DNA of 54,845 nt from a bacterium (GTDB taxonomy: Bacteria; Electryoneota; AABM5-125-24; Hatepunaeales; Hatepunaeaceae), in the NCBI GenBank assembly GCA_025774605.1, contig JALGVR010000007.1:1-54845 (forward strand), written 5' to 3'. Numbering within the stretch: the stretch's first letter is position 1; each line of letters opens with the position of its first letter. The notes under the pieces were generated by a model. It saw nothing but the letters and a program-made list of their open reading frames with translations. It did no database searches and was not told the origin of the DNA. The translations under genes and the position numbers were made by a program. This document shows, piece by piece, positions 12,609 to 32,304 of this stretch.

Positions 12609-13952
12609 ATGCTGACCGAAACCGAACTCAAGACACTCGCCGATAAGGCGCTCGCCTTCGCCAACGGCTACGACGCCGAAATACTTGTTAACTCGGGCGA
12701 CAGCGCGCTGACCCGCTTCAGCGAAAACGTCATCACCCAGAATGTTTCATCGCACAATGCCGGTCTGTCGATCAGGCTGCTCAAGGACGGCAGGATGGGC
12801 AAAGCATCGACCGGCAACCTGTCCGATGACGGGCTGAGGCGCTGCGTCGAAACCGCCGCGGCAGCGTTGAAGGTTGCGGAACGTGACCCGGACCTGTTCC
12901 CCCTGCCCGGTCCCCAGGAATACCGGAAGGTTGAAAACTTCACGCCGGCAACCCCGGAGACAACGCCTGATACCCGTGCTGAAGGCGTCAGGCTGGCCAT
13001 TGACAGGTTCAAGCGGGACGAGCTCGAGGGCGCCGGGATATTCTCCACCGGCGGCAGCGGCTTTGCGCTGGCAAATTCCAGACAGTTGTGGGCCTACCAT
13101 CCTTCGACCCGCGCCAAGTTTTCGATCTCGGCGATGAGCCCCGACTCGTCCGGCTGGGCCGAGGATACCGACAACGACATCGGAGCTATAGCCATCGACG
13201 AAATCGCCCGCAAAGCCGCGCAGAAAGCGCTGGACGGAAGGAATCCCGCCGATATCGAACCCGGCGCGTACACGGTGATCTTTGAGCCCGCCGCGGTGGC
13301 GGAATTCCTGCTCTTCCTCGCCTGGGAAGCATTCAACGGACTGGCGTATGTTGAGGATCGAAGTTGTTTCTCCGGCAAATCCGGACAAAAGGTCGCCGGC
13401 GACAACATCACCATTGTGGACGACGCCTATCACCCCATGACCAGGGGCGTCCCGTTCGACTACGAGGGGTTTCCCCGGCAGAAGGTGACGTTGATCGAGC
13501 AGGGCGTCTTCAGGTCAGCGGTGCACAACCGCAAGACGGCGAAGCTGGCGGGCGTGGATCAGACCGGTCATTCCATGCCTCAGCCCGACGCCTGGGGACC
13601 GATGCCCGGAAACCTGATCCTGTCGCCGGGTGATTCCACGATGGAGGATATGATCGCCTCGACCGACAGGGGACTGCTGGTCACCAACCTGCACTACGTG
13701 AACATCCTGAACCCGATCACGATGACGTTGACCGGCATGACCCGCGACGGCTTGTTCCTGATCGAGAACGGCAGGATCACGAAAGGCCTGAAGAACATGC
13801 GCTTCACCGAATCCGTGCTGCACGTGCTCAACAACGTCGAAGCCCTGACAAGGGAGTTGTTCAAGACCGGCACGTTCTGGGGCGGCGGCGGCAGCATCGC
13901 ACCGGCGATCAAGGTGAACGATTTTCACCTGACGAGTAAGACGGAGAATTGA
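12609..13952 (+). CDS. tldE: TldE/PmbA family protein (non-catalytic subunit)
   Basis: SALTRFSENVITQN, PGAYTVIFEPAAV, PFDYEGFP, TGMTRDG; no HExxxH motif. Confidence 0.88.
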   Translation: MLTETELKTLADKALAFANGYDAEILVNSGDSALTRFSENVITQNVSSHNAGLSIRLLKDGRMGKASTGNLSDDGLRRCVETAAAALKVAERDPDLFPLPGPQEYRKVENFTPATPETTPDTRAEGVRLAIDRFKRDELEGAGIFSTGGSGFALANSRQLWAYHPSTRAKFSISAMSPDSSGWAEDTDNDIGAIAIDEIARKAAQKALDGRNPADIEPGAYTVIFEPAAVAEFLLFLAWEAFNGLAYVEDRSCFSGKSGQKVAGDNITIVDDAYHPMTRGVPFDYEGFPRQKVTLIEQGVFRSAVHNRKTAKLAGVDQTGHSMPQPDAWGPMPGNLILSPGDSTMEDMIASTDRGLLVTNLHYVNILNPITMTLTGMTRDGLFLIENGRITKGLKNMRFTESVLHVLNNVEALTRELFKTGTFWGGGGSIAPAIKVNDFHLTSKTEN

Positions 13953-13992: not shown

Positions 13993-14191
13993 CATTAAAA
14001 TCATCCCTTCTGAAGATGCATTAATGTCATCCTTTCTGAAGGCGCATTAACGTCATCCTTTCTGAAGGTGCATTAACGTCATCCTTTCTGAAGGTGCATT
14101 AACGTCATCCCCGCGCACGCGGGGAACCAGAATCAGGACGACGGGGCTCCGCACCCGTCGCTAATGTCATCCCCGCGCACGCGGGGAACCA
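13993..14191. repeat. 26-bp tandem units merging into two REP-like palindromes
   Basis: CATTAACGTCATCCTTTCTGAAGGTG-like unit x4 (13993-14096), then GTCATCCCCGCGCACGCGGGGAACCA at 14104-14129 and 14166-14191. Confidence 0.9.
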
Positions 14192-14208: not shown

Positions 14209-15045
14209 ATGTTATTCACGATCATTCTGGTTGTAATAGCTGTTGTTGTAATTTTAATGCTAATTAAAAAGCTATCTAAGGTACAAAAACCACCAGAAGA
14301 AGAACGGATTCCCCCTCTTTTAGAAATTGGCGAATTGAATGCAGTCTGCCCCTACTGCGGTGTGGAACTGAAAAAGAAGCCCGGACGGAAGACGAAGTGC
14401 CGCGATTGCGGGAACTTCATCTATGTAAGAACCCGTCCAATCGACCAGAATAAAATTTTAATACGGGAAGACCAAATTGAGCAAATAGAAGAGCAATGGG
14501 CAATTGCAAATGGGAACTATGACGAATACTGTCGAGATAAAGAAGAAGCTCAAAGAAGACTGGAATCGGCACGTAACGTCTTAAAGCAGCGTTTTGGTAA
14601 AGATCCCTCTGAGGGAGACGTTCAATGGTATATGTTCAATGAAGACTTGATTATACATGCAGGGCAAATAAACTGGGGGCTTTACAGCAATACGAGAATG
14701 GCAATGGCATTCCACCTTGAAAAAGAGGGTCGCTTCAAGCATGCTCTACAAATTCTTCTTGAGGTATGTTATCTCGATTTAAACGGACCCAATAATATGG
14801 GCGGCATAACTGATTCTGAATTACTGAAGGAGTTCCCGCAGTGGGATGTGAGTCTCGCTTTTACGGCTCCCGCCATCTTGAACAAGATAATCAAATTGGC
14901 TGAGCAGTTGAACATTAGCAAAGACGATGTCCAGCGGATATTCTCTGAAGTCGCTGAACGAACTCGGAAATCAATCAAGACCCCTGTCCCTGTTGAATCT
15001 GCTTGGAATTCGTTGCAGAAAGAGATATGGACTGCGTCTTTGTAA
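14209..15045 (+). CDS. Hypothetical protein with N-terminal membrane anchor and Zn-ribbon
   Basis: Hydrophobic N-terminal helix; CPYC-x13-CRDC; helical C-terminal region; more AT-rich than its flanks. Confidence 0.8.
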   Translation: MLFTIILVVIAVVVILMLIKKLSKVQKPPEEERIPPLLEIGELNAVCPYCGVELKKKPGRKTKCRDCGNFIYVRTRPIDQNKILIREDQIEQIEEQWAIANGNYDEYCRDKEEAQRRLESARNVLKQRFGKDPSEGDVQWYMFNEDLIIHAGQINWGLYSNTRMAMAFHLEKEGRFKHALQILLEVCYLDLNGPNNMGGITDSELLKEFPQWDVSLAFTAPAILNKIIKLAEQLNISKDDVQRIFSEVAERTRKSIKTPVPVESAWNSLQKEIWTASL

Positions 15046-15142
15046 GAGCGTTTTTATTTGAGTCCCATAAATTTTCCATGAAGTGTATAGACTTCTATTC
15101 GTGCTTGGTTAGTAAGTATATTCCGTTTGAGTAAAAAATGGG

Positions 15143-16468
15143 ATGAACATGCCAACGAGAGAATACACAAAACCAATATATGATATTGAGGTTAACGGTG
15201 AAATACTACTCAAAAATATTTCTGGTGAGGTACATTTTGGGAATGGTAAGAAAGTAAATACATACTTCGAAATTTACTATTCTCTTTTACGTTTACCGAG
15301 CCTCAAAGTATTGTTTACTAATAGAAATCCAGATCTATATAATTATCTAACTGATAAGAATAGAATTACATTAGTGATTGACAGAAATAAGGTCAAAGGA
15401 ATTGTTTCAGCTGTAAATTTCAATTTAAAAGGCAAAATTTCATTTTTTAATTGCGAATTCATACCACATGCTCCAATTATTACCGGTGATAAATCAAATA
15501 GTGTGAAGATAATAAAATTCCATTTATTAAATTTCCCGTTTTTCTATTGTATTGGAATGCCATTATCCTCATGCTATGACGTTCCTTACAAAGATAATCA
15601 TAGAAATGCTCGCTTGGGAGGTGTACTTTTAGAAGCTATGGATTATGAGATACATTTTCATTCACATTCAGAATATCGTGAAATTGAAAAGGAATTACGA
15701 AGAACTGGTGGATACGGAATTACTCACATTGGTAAAATTAAGAGAATGGATGAAGGTCTAATAAGTTTTGATGAGGTGGATAATATTCTTAATATATTGC
15801 ACTATTTTCTTTCATTTACTGCTGGCAGATGGTGTCCACCTGTATTAATAACTGGTATTGATGATAAAGATAATGTTATTTGGGAAGTGTTTGAAACACC
15901 GTTAGTTACTAAATGGGTGTATTCACCTAACTGGTTTGATATATATAATGGTAGTTCAATTCACGATATATTTCCTGGTTTTGTTGATATGTGGAAAGAT
16001 GATGTTTGGAAAGAAACCTTAGAACATTCATTGTACTGGTATCTATTAAGCAATACTCTAACGTCAAAGGATGCTGGAATTATTCTTTCATTTACTGCTC
16101 TAGATAGGCTTAAGAGCACTTATTTACGGAAAAATAACAAACATTTACTAAAGAATAAATATGGTGGTAAATTTAAAATTGATTCTCTTTTGAAGGAGTT
16201 TAAAATTGATCCAACGATTCCCAGTAAACTATCAAATATTAAAAAATTAGGTGATAATGGTCCGAAACTGATAACAGAAGTGAGAAACTCATACGTACAT
16301 CCTACGGAACGTATTCCGTCTAATTTAGATATTAGTTTCGAAGCATGGCAACTTACACAATGGTATTTGGATCTGATATTTCTAAAACTTTTCGATTACA
16401 ATGGGCAATATTCCAATAGAATAACATCTACTCGCTATGGGCAAGTAGAGGATGTACCGTGGATTTAA
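15143..16468 (+). CDS. Apea-like HEPN domain protein (candidate anti-phage ribonuclease)
   Basis: Very AT-rich 441-aa ORF; beta-rich N-terminal half; C-terminal R-N-S-Y-V-H (RxxxxH) motif at residues 381-386. Confidence 0.6.
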   Translation: MNMPTREYTKPIYDIEVNGEILLKNISGEVHFGNGKKVNTYFEIYYSLLRLPSLKVLFTNRNPDLYNYLTDKNRITLVIDRNKVKGIVSAVNFNLKGKISFFNCEFIPHAPIITGDKSNSVKIIKFHLLNFPFFYCIGMPLSSCYDVPYKDNHRNARLGGVLLEAMDYEIHFHSHSEYREIEKELRRTGGYGITHIGKIKRMDEGLISFDEVDNILNILHYFLSFTAGRWCPPVLITGIDDKDNVIWEVFETPLVTKWVYSPNWFDIYNGSSIHDIFPGFVDMWKDDVWKETLEHSLYWYLLSNTLTSKDAGIILSFTALDRLKSTYLRKNNKHLLKNKYGGKFKIDSLLKEFKIDPTIPSKLSNIKKLGDNGPKLITEVRNSYVHPTERIPSNLDISFEAWQLTQWYLDLIFLKLFDYNGQYSNRITSTRYGQVEDVPWI

Positions 16469-16489
16469 AAGCTCATAAATTTTAAAGTG

Positions 16490-16552
16490 CTGGATTCCAA
16501 CTTCCGTTGGAATGATGAGCTTGTCTGCATTCCCGGTCAGGTCGGGAATGAC
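16490..16552. repeat. Two reversed REP-like palindromes
   Basis: CTGGATTCCAACTTCCGTTGGAATGATGAG and CATTCCCGGTCAGGTCGGGAATGAC; same family as the MITE-internal REP. Confidence 0.8.
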
Positions 16553-16607
16553 AAGTAATAAAATAGCTTGTTAGTACATTTACTTTTTAATATACACGAG
16601 GCAATCA

Positions 16608-18053
16608 ATGAGACAACTTGCTGAGCGCGCAGTCGAGACGGCAAAGGTAAAGGGCGCATCATACGCCGACTGCAGAATCATCTTCACCGAAACAGAAGAG
16701 ACCACGGTTCAGAACGGCAAGGTTTCCGAGCTTAACATCAGCGAAGACATCGGCTTCGGCGTCAGGGTTATCGTCGACGGCGCCTGGGGGTTCGCCTGCG
16801 GTCCGGGGACAGACAGGGAATCCATCGACAGGATCGCCGCCGAAGCGGTGTCGATCGCCAGGGCATCCGCCATGTTGAAAAAAGATGACGTCCGCCTCGC
16901 TCCGGAACCGGTCTACGACGAAACCTGGCAGACACCGATCGTCGAGGACCCGTTCGCGGTGCCCTTGGAGGAAAAACTGGCGCTGCTGTTCGAGATCGAC
17001 CGTACCCTGCGCACCGACAAGCGCATCAAGACCGCAACCGGATCGCTCGAATTCCTGCGCGAACACCAGTGGATGGCGACCAGCGAAGGGACGTTCATCG
17101 ACCAGCTCCTGGTGCGCAGCGGCGCGGGATTCTCAGCCACGGCGGTCGGCAACGATGAAGTGCAGGTGCGCAGCTATCCGAACTCGTTCCGCGGTCAATA
17201 TATGACTTTGGGTTACGAGCTCGTGCGCGGGCTGCACCTGTTGGACAACGCCGAACGGGTGCGCGAGGAAGCCATCGCGCTCCTGACCGCGCCGACATGC
17301 CCCTCCGGTCAATACGACACCATCATCGACGGCTCGCAGATGGGGCTGCAGATCCACGAATCGGTCGGACACGCCACCGAACTCGACCGCGTCCTGGGGA
17401 TGGAAGCCAACTACGCCGGAATGAGCTTCGCCACGACCGAGAAGCTGAACAACTTCCGTTACGGCTCCGACATCGTCAACCTGGTCTGCGACGCCACCGT
17501 GCCGGGCGGGTTGGGGACGTTCGGCTGGGACGATGACGGCGTCCGGGCTCAACGCTGGCACCTGGTCAGGAACGGTCAGTTCGTCGGATACCAGTTCAAC
17601 CGGGAGCTTGCACATAAGATCAATGCTGAACGGGCGGTCAGCAGCAATCGGGCGGACGGCTGGAACAATATCCCGATCGTGCGCAACGGCAATATCTCGC
17701 TGATGCCCGGCAAGTGGAAGCTGGAAGACCTGATGGCCGACACCGAGGGCGGAATCTACATGGAGACCAATCGCAGCTGGTCAATCGACCAGTGGCGGCT
17801 GAACTTCCAATTCGGCGTGGAGGCTGCCTGGGAGATCAAGGGCGGCAGGAAGGGACAACTGCTAAAAAACGCCAACTACCAAGGCATCACACCGGAGTTC
17901 TGGAAGAGCTGCGATGCGATCTGCAACGACGAACACTGGGTGTTATGGGGCGTGAACAACTGCGGCAAGGGTCAACCCGGTCAGCGCGCCGAAATGTCCC
18001 ACGGCGCCGCTCCGACACGGTTCAGGAAAATGACGGTCGGTGTGGGGAATTAG
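16608..18053 (+). CDS. tldD: TldD family zinc metalloprotease subunit
   Basis: IHESVGHATELDR (HExxGH), GTFGWDDDGV, CGKGQP. Confidence 0.92.
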   Translation: MRQLAERAVETAKVKGASYADCRIIFTETEETTVQNGKVSELNISEDIGFGVRVIVDGAWGFACGPGTDRESIDRIAAEAVSIARASAMLKKDDVRLAPEPVYDETWQTPIVEDPFAVPLEEKLALLFEIDRTLRTDKRIKTATGSLEFLREHQWMATSEGTFIDQLLVRSGAGFSATAVGNDEVQVRSYPNSFRGQYMTLGYELVRGLHLLDNAERVREEAIALLTAPTCPSGQYDTIIDGSQMGLQIHESVGHATELDRVLGMEANYAGMSFATTEKLNNFRYGSDIVNLVCDATVPGGLGTFGWDDDGVRAQRWHLVRNGQFVGYQFNRELAHKINAERAVSSNRADGWNNIPIVRNGNISLMPGKWKLEDLMADTEGGIYMETNRSWSIDQWRLNFQFGVEAAWEIKGGRKGQLLKNANYQGITPEFWKSCDAICNDEHWVLWGVNNCGKGQPGQRAEMSHGAAPTRFRKMTVGVGN

Positions 18054-18679: not shown

Positions 18680-19465
18680 ATGTTTTCCGGCTTCGCGATT
18701 CGTTCCGGCAACCCGGACAGGACGCCTCCGGTCTGCATCATCCTGACCGCAACCGTAATCTGTCTGTTTGCAGGTCAATTGTCCGCCGAGGGAATAACGG
18801 CATATTCATGTCTGGATTCGAGCTGGGTGGATACCGTATATTCCCTCGTCAGGAACGATCAGATGGATTCCGCCGTCAGGTTCATCAAGGGGCTCGGCGA
18901 TGAAAACAGTGTGGTCCGCATCTGGCTCGATATTCAGCGTGATATTTTCAGTGTCAAGCGAGACGCACACGCTTCCGCCGCCATCGGCAGGATCGGTGCC
19001 GAATATGCCGTCGAGAAGGGTTACATCCGCACCGCGGCGGTGATGTTGCACAACATCTGTTCCTTCATGATGCCGGAATTCGACGAAGGGATCGATGCGG
19101 AAGATCACCAGGCGATCATTGACGCCGCCAGGCGTCAGGTCGAGCTGAGGCGCCGGATCAGGTACAAGTCAAAGCTCGTCTGGGCGTTGTGGGATCTGGG
19201 GATCGCCCGGTTGTCGGCAGGGCACGCAGACGAAGCGATCAAGGCGCTAAGCGAGGGTGAAAAGCTTTCCCTGGATCAAGATGAAGCCAAAGCCGCCGCC
19301 TGGTGCCGCATTTTCATCGGCAAGACCAAGGTCAAGTACATGCCGGATCGCGAGTTCGAGGGCGAAAGAGATATGCTGGAAGCCGCGAGAATAATCCGTA
19401 AAACCGGGAAGTCATGGGAAAAAGAGGCCGTGGGGAATATCCTGAAATCGGTCTATCTTGAGTGA
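18680..19465 (+). CDS. Hypothetical alpha-helical (TPR-like), probably exported protein
   Basis: Hydrophobic stretch VCIILTATVICLFAGQLSA resembling a signal peptide; helical repeats (WALWDLGIARL, AAWCRIFIGK). Confidence 0.7.
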   Translation: MFSGFAIRSGNPDRTPPVCIILTATVICLFAGQLSAEGITAYSCLDSSWVDTVYSLVRNDQMDSAVRFIKGLGDENSVVRIWLDIQRDIFSVKRDAHASAAIGRIGAEYAVEKGYIRTAAVMLHNICSFMMPEFDEGIDAEDHQAIIDAARRQVELRRRIRYKSKLVWALWDLGIARLSAGHADEAIKALSEGEKLSLDQDEAKAAAWCRIFIGKTKVKYMPDREFEGERDMLEAARIIRKTGKSWEKEAVGNILKSVYLE

Positions 19466-19552: not shown

Positions 19553-19813
19553 TTGCCGGCGGCGGGTAACATCACGGAGTCGCGGGGAGCGTTCGAGGAG
19601 GGTGAAAAACTGGCATTGGAGCAAAATGACCGGAACTGCGCCGCATGGTGTCGTATCTTTATCGGCAAGGCAAAAGTCAAGCGCCTGCCGGACCTGAAGG
19701 AGCAGGGCAGGCAGGAAATGCTGGATGCCGCCGGAGTCATCACTGAGATCGGTGAAGAGTGGGAACGGGAAGCAATGGAAGGGATCTTACAATCCGCCGG
19801 TGTTAAAAGATAA
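19553..19813 (+). pseudogene. Truncated paralog of the C-terminus of 18680-19465
   Basis: EGEKLALEQNDRNCAAWCRIFIGKAKVK aligns with EGEKLSLDQDEAKAAAWCRIFIGKTKVK; in-frame stop at 19508-19510 and no equivalent of the N-terminal two thirds. Confidence 0.7.
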
Positions 19814-31299: not shown

Positions 31300-32304
31300 T
31301 TATCCAGCAATATTATAGCCAAATGAATACCGGAGGTGCTTCTTGATAAAGGTTAACAGCATTGCTTGCTCATCAGCGGTAAGTTCATCCAACTGGTTAA
31401 TTTTACCGGAACGCCCCATTTTAACATATCTTATATCGTCAATCCCTTTTCTCTTCATTTCATATTCCCGCTCTCGTTCAATCGACGTAAGCTTAATGGA
31501 GTATTCAACAAGAGGCGTTGGAATATCATCAATCCCAAGAAATCCAGTAAATTTCATAAACGTCTCCAAAGGTTCATTAATCAACTCTTCGTATCTGATT
31601 ATTAAATAGTCGTGAAACTTACCACTCTCTAAAGCATAACCCCAGGAGTTCAGAAATTTCATCATATTCAGAGGTGGAGCAAGATTCAAATATGATTCAA
31701 AATCATGATTCTCGAAGAACTTACCGAAATAATACTTCGAGATTAAGATGTCACAGGGATTCCTGATCTGTAAGACAAGTCTGCGATGGTTTGTCCAGGG
31801 GAGACAGCTGTTGTGACTATGCATCAATCTTGGAACGGGTACATGATATCTGAACCTGTTCTCTCCAAAGGTTGTGTTGTATTGACCGGTCACCGGTTCA
31901 TAGAAAAGCCTCCGGTGGTCATCCAGAATATCCAGGTTCAATTCCAGATCATAGAATTGTTTTGCCATAACTACTGTATATACATGTGATAACCACGTGA
32001 AACCCGATCGTTGTACCGTGAACCATAGAACATCGTTCTGGCGCGGATACCAATGCCACATGGTCCTGGCGGTTCTTGCCAACGCCTTAAATATATCTCT
32101 CTTGCGGTAATCATCATACCTGGTGCCCAGCAGAGATTTTATGTATCTCTTTAACGGCGCAATCGCCAGATGCCAAGGGTAGTTACGCATCAGGAATACT
32201 CTGATCGGAGATACCGGACGATGGTAATGCGTCAACCGACCCTCTGCGGACTTCCTCTGTTCAGCAATCGAGGGTTGATACAGCAGCTCGCGCTGATTTA
32301 CCAC
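31300..32304 (-). CDS. Sulfotransferase domain protein
   Basis: 5'-PSB-like TVQRSGFTWL, 3'-PB-like RNPCDILIS, and YEEL; AT-richer than its neighbours. Confidence 0.8.
   Translation of the reverse strand: MVNQRELLYQPSIAEQRKSAEGRLTHYHRPVSPIRVFLMRNYPWHLAIAPLKRYIKSLLGTRYDDYRKRDIFKALARTARTMWHWYPRQNDVLWFTVQRSGFTWLSHVYTVVMAKQFYDLELNLDILDDHRRLFYEPVTGQYNTTFGENRFRYHVPVPRLMHSHNSCLPWTNHRRLVLQIRNPCDILISKYYFGKFFENHDFESYLNLAPPLNMMKFLNSWGYALESGKFHDYLIIRYEELINEPLETFMKFTGFLGIDDIPTPLVEYSIKLTSIEREREYEMKRKGIDDIRYVKMGRSGKINQLDELTADEQAMLLTFIKKHLRYSFGYNIAG

Follow-up and report, generated by a model that had tools for sequence, protein, structure and literature searches.

Bacterial chromosomes such as those of E. 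coli, Vibrio and Pseudomonas carry defense hotspots, where conserved core genes enclose variable defense cargo. Single-gene defense is illustrated by ApeA, a HEPN anti-phage system whose product is switched on by deoxydinucleotides and acts as a tRNA anticodon nuclease (bioRxiv 10.64898/2026.01.26.701840), and a mostly β-strand domain, "ApeA-NTD1", has been described in fusion with the Apea HEPN domain (Anantharaman 2013, PMC3710099). The YopA family takes its name from a gene of the Bacillus prophage SPbeta. Here we analyze a locus that touches on all three, located on a 54,845-nt stretch of DNA (contig JALGVR010000007.1 of assembly GCA_025774605.1, positions 1 to 54,845, forward strand; hereafter the window) from a Candidatus Hatepunaea-related bacterium of the phylum Electryoneota. 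An AT-rich island of two genes, one encoding a membrane zinc-ribbon protein (gene A) and one a YopA-family protein (gene B), lies between the metalloprotease genes pmbA (tldE) and tldD and is bracketed by repetitive extragenic palindromic (REP) elements. We consider it probable that the island is horizontally acquired, variable cargo of a lineage-specific slot, that its two genes are independent of one another, and that gene B provides a single-protein, HEPN-type abortive-infection (Abi) defense.

The 2.65-kb island is set off from its surroundings by base composition. The guanine-plus-cytosine (GC) content is 0.428 in gene A and 0.315 in gene B, against 0.606 in pmbA and 0.608 in tldD, and the GC content of third codon positions is 0.44 and 0.235 against 0.80 in the flanks. 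The whole window has a GC content of 0.546, its remainder consisting of housekeeping genes, e.g., dnaX, a two-component kinase gene and polysaccharide biosynthesis genes. A preliminary description of this DNA had placed two co-oriented, low-GC genes between tldE and tldD; its coordinates for the open reading frames (ORFs) proved exact (Table 1), and both genes lie well below the ~0.61 of the flanks. The flanking products are 75% (PmbA-like) and 85% (TldD-like) identical to their orthologs in Candidatus (Ca.) Hatepunaea meridiana. As that description had also stated, no integrase or transposase is found among the window's ORFs within or adjoining the island, and a tRNA scan and an Rfam scan returned no match within or beside it.

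Table 1. Features of the locus in the window, pmbA–tldD gaps in other genomes, and genomic settings of gene-B (YopA) homologs. Lengths of proteins are in amino acids (aa).
Feature	Position or locus	Strand	TldD identity	Gap	Evidence or content
PmbA/TldE-like metalloprotease gene, 447 aa (left conserved flank of slot)	12609..13952	+			Pfam PmbA_TldD_1st, 2nd, 3rd; best E 2.3e-54
26-nt tandem array, 4.5 copies, consensus CATTAACGTCATCCTTTCTGAAGGTG	13993..14110	+			Tandem Repeats Finder score 194, 92% matches
Two forward REP palindromes, TAAYGTCATCCCCGCGCACGCGGGGAACCA	14100-14129 and 14162-14191	+			Third small palindrome between the two
Gene A, 278 aa	14209..15045	+			ORF list; GC 0.428
Gene B, 441 aa, YopA family	15143..16468	+			ORF list, Pfam; GC 0.315
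Two reverse REP palindromes	16494-16518 and 16530-16551	-			Palindrome and family scan
TldD-like metalloprotease gene, 481 aa (right conserved flank)	16608..18053	+			All three PmbA_TldD Pfam domains; NCBIfam archaeal-type TldD, E 9e-41
Gap in close relatives	L013, L014, L016, L017, L020, L033		76-80%	14-27 bp	Empty
Gap in further genomes	L023, L024, L038, L039, L044		49-65%	15-31 bp	Empty
Gap in Ca. Hatepunaea meridiana (phylum Electryoneota)	L010		85%	4.8 kb	DarG-like Macro protein, PDC-S35 TIR protein, YopA homolog, small antitoxin-like ORFs, ParE
Gap in relative	L011		83%	2.6 kb	RhuM/PDC-S05 gene and Ser/Thr kinase resembling PD-T4-6 (PD-T4-6/mad6-like)
Gap in relative	L026		82%	2.4 kb	153-aa ORF and double-zinc-ribbon protein
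Gap in relatives	L021, L022		67-69%	1.9 to ~2 kb, GC 0.28	PtuA/AriA-like AAA_21 ATPase and partner
YopA homolog inside bacteriophage exclusion (BREX) operon	L090 2961-10118 (P0014)				Between PglX-like methyltransferase and SNF2 helicase/PglZ
YopA homolog right after 400-aa TIR_2 gene					Island with ThsB_TIR, Abi_2, Fic, UvrD and AAA_13 genes
YopA homolog between PLD-SNF2 gene and SIR2_2 gene					
YopA homolog in Hatepunaea slot	L010				With DarG, TIR, ParE
Solitary YopA homologs					Beside resolvase, Uma2 nuclease or MNT nucleotidyltransferase, or at contig end

We retrieved 80 genomic loci that encode relatives of TldD and mapped the PmbA gene at each (Table 1; identities are relative to the window's TldD). 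This comparison of the junction, which had been suggested as the way to tell an empty site from variable cargo, found the gap empty in 11 genomes (14–31 bp) and occupied by differing genes in five (1.9–4.8 kb). The two protease genes are therefore normally adjacent, as had been supposed. Because the gap is empty in relatives and holds other cargo in the nearest clade, it is a lineage-specific variable hotspot. Recognized defense genes are part of the slot cargo (DarG, PDC-S35 TIR, PDC-S05, a kinase, a PtuA/AriA-like ATPase and ParE), an observation that is qualitative and carries no background statistic. The low GC content, the empty site in relatives and the largely defense-type cargo in the nearest clade agree with the horizontally acquired cassette originally proposed, and the interpretation of the island as horizontally acquired, strain-variable cargo is well supported. 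In most distant phyla, tldD and pmbA are adjacent in the opposite order: tldD precedes pmbA in loci of Actinomycetota, Acidobacteriota, Chloroflexota and Armatimonadota (L025, L027–L089), and the order pmbA-then-tldD is found in the window's clade plus a few others.

We note two features of the cargo in relatives. The slot of Ca. H. meridiana starts with a strong DarG match (L010 4264–5310; PADLOC E 1e-135), adjoined by no evident full-length DarT gene; only a 47–55-aa ORF is next. In L026 (5622–6710), a 362-aa cargo protein has a pair of zinc ribbons and the stretch RRHLFIH in its C-terminal part, with a weak PADLOC match to PDC-M14A. This protein would be a second zinc-ribbon/HEPN-like combination of the slot, in this case within a single polypeptide.

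Pieces of pmbA and tldD, many of them 95–99% identical, are present on contigs of seven public metagenome runs, none of which shows any read depth over ~14244–16600, even at an 80% identity threshold; the contigs are of low depth (~3x). This pattern is consistent with closely related populations that lack the island or carry a different one. Runs with near-identical flanks and no island reads could also point to a metagenome assembly chimera, an insert joined at REPs and absent from any real genome, and the REPs at both junctions and the sharp GC step agree with such an origin. We consider it highly improbable, as it would take two precise joins that preserve gene order. Moreover, an independent metagenome-assembled genome (MAG) from another study (L010) carries the closest YopA homolog in the same slot, also at a lower GC content than its flanks, and a third MAG (L011) has REP-bracketed cargo at the same site.

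The bracketing of the island by inward-facing REPs, noted earlier from the letters of the DNA, is confirmed at both borders (Table 1). The family has the layout GTCATYCC–stem–GNRA-like loop–stem–ATCCA. A scan of the window scored 15 positions, or ~11 distinct copies after merging overlaps (at 228, 9902, 9945, 10128, 14105, 14167, 16494, 16530, 28605, 48630 and 54616, intergenic), against 0–4 in 10 shuffles. We therefore find many dispersed intergenic copies of one imperfect palindrome, above chance, as expected of REP elements; these are genome-wide elements, and the island ends are not their specific site. Copies of the family also occur in the relatives L011, where inward-facing REPs bracket the slot cargo as in the window, and L012, whose contig begins with REPs just upstream of tldD. 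Left of the island, the tandem array, which was also recovered as repeat family D1, is built of a unit (CATTAACGTCATCCTTTCTGAAGGTG) that resembles a degenerate REP whose short stem is CCTT/AAGG; the array runs straight into the two full REPs. A CRISPR mini-array made of two 30-nt repeats spaced 62 nt apart was considered and rejected: the repeats belong to the dispersed REP family, the would-be spacer is itself a palindrome, and no cas-like ORF lies nearby. The slot has no recombinase, and we infer that cargo is most likely exchanged by homologous recombination at the conserved protease genes or at the REPs on either side. With REPs present at both borders, exchange that is assisted by REPs or mediated by the flanks could be tested in metagenomic populations.

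Turning to the cargo itself, gene B is a member of the YopA family. A search of 5.8 billion non-redundant proteins returned 29 hits, all with precomputed Pfam PF26308 (YopA_M) and PF27216 (YopA_C), such that both domain models are listed for the window protein and for all 28 homologs. The best homolog in that search, at 51% identity, occupies the same slot in Ca. H. meridiana. An exhaustive profile search counted 3,980 clusters (50% identity) with E ≤ 1e-3 and 2,307 with E ≤ 1e-30; almost all have a length of ~440 aa. The sole match in a phage database was yopA of the Bacillus prophage SPbeta/SPBc2 (tblastn, 30.3% over residues 159–440, E 3e-29), and occurrences on viral contigs are rare for both the gene-A and the gene-B family. 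PHROGs and NCBIfam gave no meaningful match for either protein.

The C-terminal part of gene B contains the motif R381-N-S-Y-V-H386 (nt 16283–16300). In the 28-sequence family alignment neither R381 nor N382 varies, and conservation of H386 is 90% or more, which corresponds to the HEPN R-N-x3-H signature and falls within the general HEPN pattern Rx4-6H. In the AlphaFold2 (AF2) model (predicted local distance difference test (pLDDT) 88; predicted template modeling score (pTM) 0.89), a β-rich N-terminal and middle part (residues 1–250, with strands through 20–250) is followed by a helical C-terminal domain (271–416); the RNxxxH motif is positioned at the end of one helix, and a long helix comes next. 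HEPN_Apea is the only recurrent Pfam match in the YopA family, seen in 6 of 28 members and always sub-threshold; for gene B itself it reaches E 0.019 and 15.8 bits, below the cut-off of 24.4. ApeA_NTD1 matches one of the 28 members weakly. A Foldseek search with the gene B N-terminus found weak small β-barrel matches only. The preliminary description had named gene B a HEPN nuclease: the conserved RNxxxH motif speaks for that assignment, and a significant profile or fold match is lacking. Gene B is a candidate for a stand-alone HEPN-type Abi protein of a large, uncharacterized family. Two further stretches, GGYGITH (residues 189–195; nt 15707–15727) and (FL)SF-x-G-x-W (residues 224–230; nt 15812–15832), are invariant in the YopA middle domain, both away from the HEPN motif; they could belong to a pocket for a ligand or to a second functional site.

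YopA homologs stand alone, often in defense islands (Table 1), and SPbeta yopA is itself a stand-alone gene, with a RES-domain toxin gene and a gene for superinfection exclusion in its vicinity. Gene B is an anti-phage candidate because of this guilt by association and the conserved HEPN motif. The founding member of the family is, however, a prophage gene, both island families are found, if rarely, on viral contigs, and several YopA contexts are free of defense genes, the defense function being putative. These observations would suit an island of decaying or selfish acquired DNA (a mobile-element remnant or prophage morons) with no defense role, in which YopA processes RNA or benefits a phage. 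We regard this alternative as rather unlikely. Both ORFs are intact and keep all family-invariant residues, the slot of relatives holds recognized defense genes, and YopA homologs are found within a BREX operon and within TIR/SIR2 islands.

Two of these settings show close gene spacing. The ORF boundaries of the YopA homolog in L090 are tight or overlapping with those of its BREX neighbors. A TIR_2 protein of 400 aa ends 18–56 bp before a YopA homolog in three contigs (L174 4780–7422, L175 44–2686 and L092 4742–7380), and this could be a clade-specific TIR–YopA pairing.

Gene A, in turn, had been described as a membrane zinc-ribbon protein, and both attributes hold: its AF2 model (pLDDT 93.9) has a membrane helix (residues 2–23), a zinc ribbon and an all-helical domain resembling tetratricopeptide repeats (TPR-like), and the four cysteines of the ribbon are invariant in the family alignment (A2). 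The ribbon is of the CxxC...CxxC type (C47, C50, C64 and C67; nt 14347–14409 by translation), and the remaining family invariants are a VRT(RP) stretch, E95, W97 and the EVCYLDLNGPNN motif, the last in the helical-repeat domain. Only a subset of the family has the N-terminal membrane helix. The family is widespread in bacteria and archaea, with >182 members in a word-indexed search and 287 confirmed metagenome stretches, and corresponds to no Pfam family. Comparison with the sequences of solved structures recovered only RNA-polymerase zinc-ribbon subunits (E ~0.2), Foldseek of the AF2 model against the Protein Data Bank (PDB) gave nothing below E 1e-3 and only weak TPR-like matches, and PADLOC returned only spurious matches driven by the zinc ribbon.

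The genomic settings of the gene-A family do not lead to gene B. Its closest homologs (79% and 58% identity) sit elsewhere on the chromosome, one of them belonging to a MAG with a TldD 83% identical to that of the window, and both are followed 29–34 bp downstream by a conserved protein of 365–397 aa. We compared this partner with gene B as a possible counterpart; the two are unrelated. Units of gene-A homolog and partner are found at L001 7101–9210 and L005 4694–6765, the partners being 48% identical to one another and without a Pfam family, and a HEPN_AbiU2 gene lies just upstream in L005, L006 and L008; the gene-A homolog and its 365–397-aa partner may form a separate, uncharacterized module. 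Among 101 non-redundant immediate neighbors of the family no recurrent partner emerged. The neighbors include Ltp lipoproteins, DndB, a type II restriction enzyme, TIR and caspase-like proteins, PADLOC candidate families, an IS110 transposase and an integrase, as well as a few HEPN proteins: AbiU2 (L005), DUF4209 (L107) and small ORFs with an RxxxxH motif (L106, L113, L118, L127). We read this as the usual content of variable or defense regions rather than as a specific partnership.

These data bear on the most obvious alternative, namely that gene A and gene B form a dedicated sensor–effector or toxin–antitoxin-like anti-phage system in which gene A senses infection or restrains the nuclease. 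A sensor–effector layout had in fact been put forward for the island. The two genes are encoded on the same strand, 97 bp apart, with no terminator predicted between them, and some gene-A homologs adjoin other HEPN proteins (AbiU2, DUF4209 and the RxxxxH ORFs), all of which would suit such a system. However, across 109 loci the two families never co-occur: gene-B homologs are present in 0 of 95 gene-A loci and gene-A homologs in 0 of 14 YopA loci, so that the conserved co-occurrence or adjacency of a dedicated two-gene system is not seen. YopA homologs elsewhere are solitary or have other neighbors, the membrane helix is limited to a subset of the gene-A family, and a PADLOC run, likewise suggested as a check, found no convincing model match for either protein. 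The sensor–effector reading is thus unsupported, because co-occurrence is absent, the GC contents of the two genes differ by 11 points, and the nearest relatives of gene A have a different conserved partner. A paired module is unlikely, and we hold a dedicated two-gene system to be quite improbable; the two cargo genes look like independent passengers. The 11-point GC difference also supports the earlier suggestion that they arrived separately.

Several observations weigh against the interpretation of the locus given at the outset. The HEPN assignment of gene B is sub-threshold in Pfam and rests on the motif together with sub-threshold matches. Foldseek of its AF2 model against the PDB and BFVD found no HEPN structure and nothing below E 1e-3, and PDB searches with gene B, the family profile and a C-terminal sub-profile likewise returned no HEPN structure and no meaningful match. 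PADLOC reports zero families for gene B, its L010 homolog and SPbeta YopA. About 4 of 10 YopA contexts are without obvious defense neighbors, and a search of the literature for YopA function, the Pfam names and the accessions found no relevant paper or experiment on any member. Given their 97-bp same-strand spacing, the two genes may be co-transcribed and to some extent functionally coupled at this locus; a promoter and terminator scan of the island was uninformative, and sigma-70 consensus rules may not hold in this phylum. Finally, the absence of the island from the seven metagenome runs rests on contigs of a depth that is better at showing presence than absence.

For gene B we infer an RNase activity and a role in defense. 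By analogy with HEPN Abi proteins such as ApeA and DARNA, it would most likely act as a single-protein abortive-infection RNase in which N-terminal domains gate a dimeric HEPN site. The β-rich N-terminal and middle domains would keep the enzyme inactive until a cue of infection is perceived, upon which the dimerized C-terminal HEPN domains (R381/H386) would cut RNA, plausibly at tRNA anticodon loops as in ApeA, and translation would stop. Gene A would be a separate passenger from a family widespread in variable and defense regions, its usual downstream partner being absent here.

A broader proposal goes further, and we offer it tentatively, as a possibility that may well not hold: the YopA family (~4,000 50%-identity clusters across bacteria, absent from PADLOC 2.0) may be a widespread, unrecognized single-gene HEPN abortive-infection system with a β-rich sensor, and the REP-bracketed gap may serve as a recombinase-free slot for the exchange of defense cassettes in Electryoneota and related lineages of the Fibrobacterota–Chlorobiota–Bacteroidota (FCB) group. 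More speculative still, the gene-A zinc-ribbon family might be a modular partner of different nucleases, either the 365–397-aa partner or various HEPN proteins. The YopA family is large, unstudied and absent from the defense-system library that was searched. Should its members prove to be HEPN nucleases of abortive infection, a role would be assigned to thousands of clusters, including the SPbeta and BREX-embedded genes, and the β-rich N-terminal module would become a new type of infection sensor to study.

Elsewhere in the window, a second GC dip (0.436 over 31–32 kb) coincides with a sulfotransferase gene (31300–32304, minus strand) inside the sugar/polysaccharide cluster, which is probably another horizontally acquired gene. 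Downstream of tldD, an 86-aa ORF (19553–19813) repeats the C-terminal part of a 261-aa ORF (18680–19465), with the common motif AAWCRIFIGK.KVK; neither has a Pfam match, and the arrangement looks like a partial tandem duplication.

We finally compare the locus with the known systems. Gene B shares its predicted catalytic motif and genomic habitat with AbiU2, AbiJ, AbiD/F, PD-T7-3 (DARNA) and PrrC/RloC, and would follow, by analogy, the same suicide-RNase logic as other HEPN Abi proteins, whereas no significant sequence or fold match connects it to any of them. DARNA in particular was rejected as the identity of gene B: its HEPN domain is N-terminal and that of gene B C-terminal. Similarly to ApeA, gene B is a single polypeptide with a C-terminal Apea-like HEPN region after large non-catalytic domains, has its Rx4H motif in a helix followed by a long helix, and belongs to a family found, like ApeA, in defense islands and restriction–modification operons. 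Unlike ApeA, it matches HEPN_Apea (PF18739) below threshold and has no PADLOC match, hence none to the ApeA model. Neither a model match at threshold nor the α-helical N-terminal and Mid domains of an ApeA system are seen in gene B; residues 1–250 are β-rich. The solved structures of E. coli ApeA being mainly α-helical, gene B can be no more than a distant relative of these proteins. The ApeA-NTD1–Apea HEPN fusion (PMC3710099) resembles the architecture of gene B. With SPbeta YopA, gene B shares a length of ~440 aa, YopA_M and YopA_C, and its status as a stand-alone gene in an accessory region; it differs in being chromosomal in Electryoneota rather than in a Firmicute prophage, and its N-terminal 158 residues are without a BLAST alignment to that protein.

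The REPs, too, have a known counterpart. Like palindromes of the REP or bacterial interspersed mosaic element (BIME) type, the window copies are imperfect palindromes of ~27–30 nt, intergenic, clustered, present in both orientations and in many copies, whereas their consensus, GTCATYCC...GGRATCCA, is specific to this lineage. With chromosomal defense hotspots, the slot shares conserved flanks, an empty state in some genomes and differing, lower-GC defense cargo in others. It differs from them in that its flanks, pmbA and tldD, are otherwise a tight two-gene unit, and in that it lacks an integrase or P4/P2-type element and has REPs on both sides in at least two genomes, that of the window and that of L011. 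In this comparison the pmbA–tldD slot is a clean natural example, from an uncultured phylum, of the turnover of defense cargo between tightly linked core genes without an integrase.

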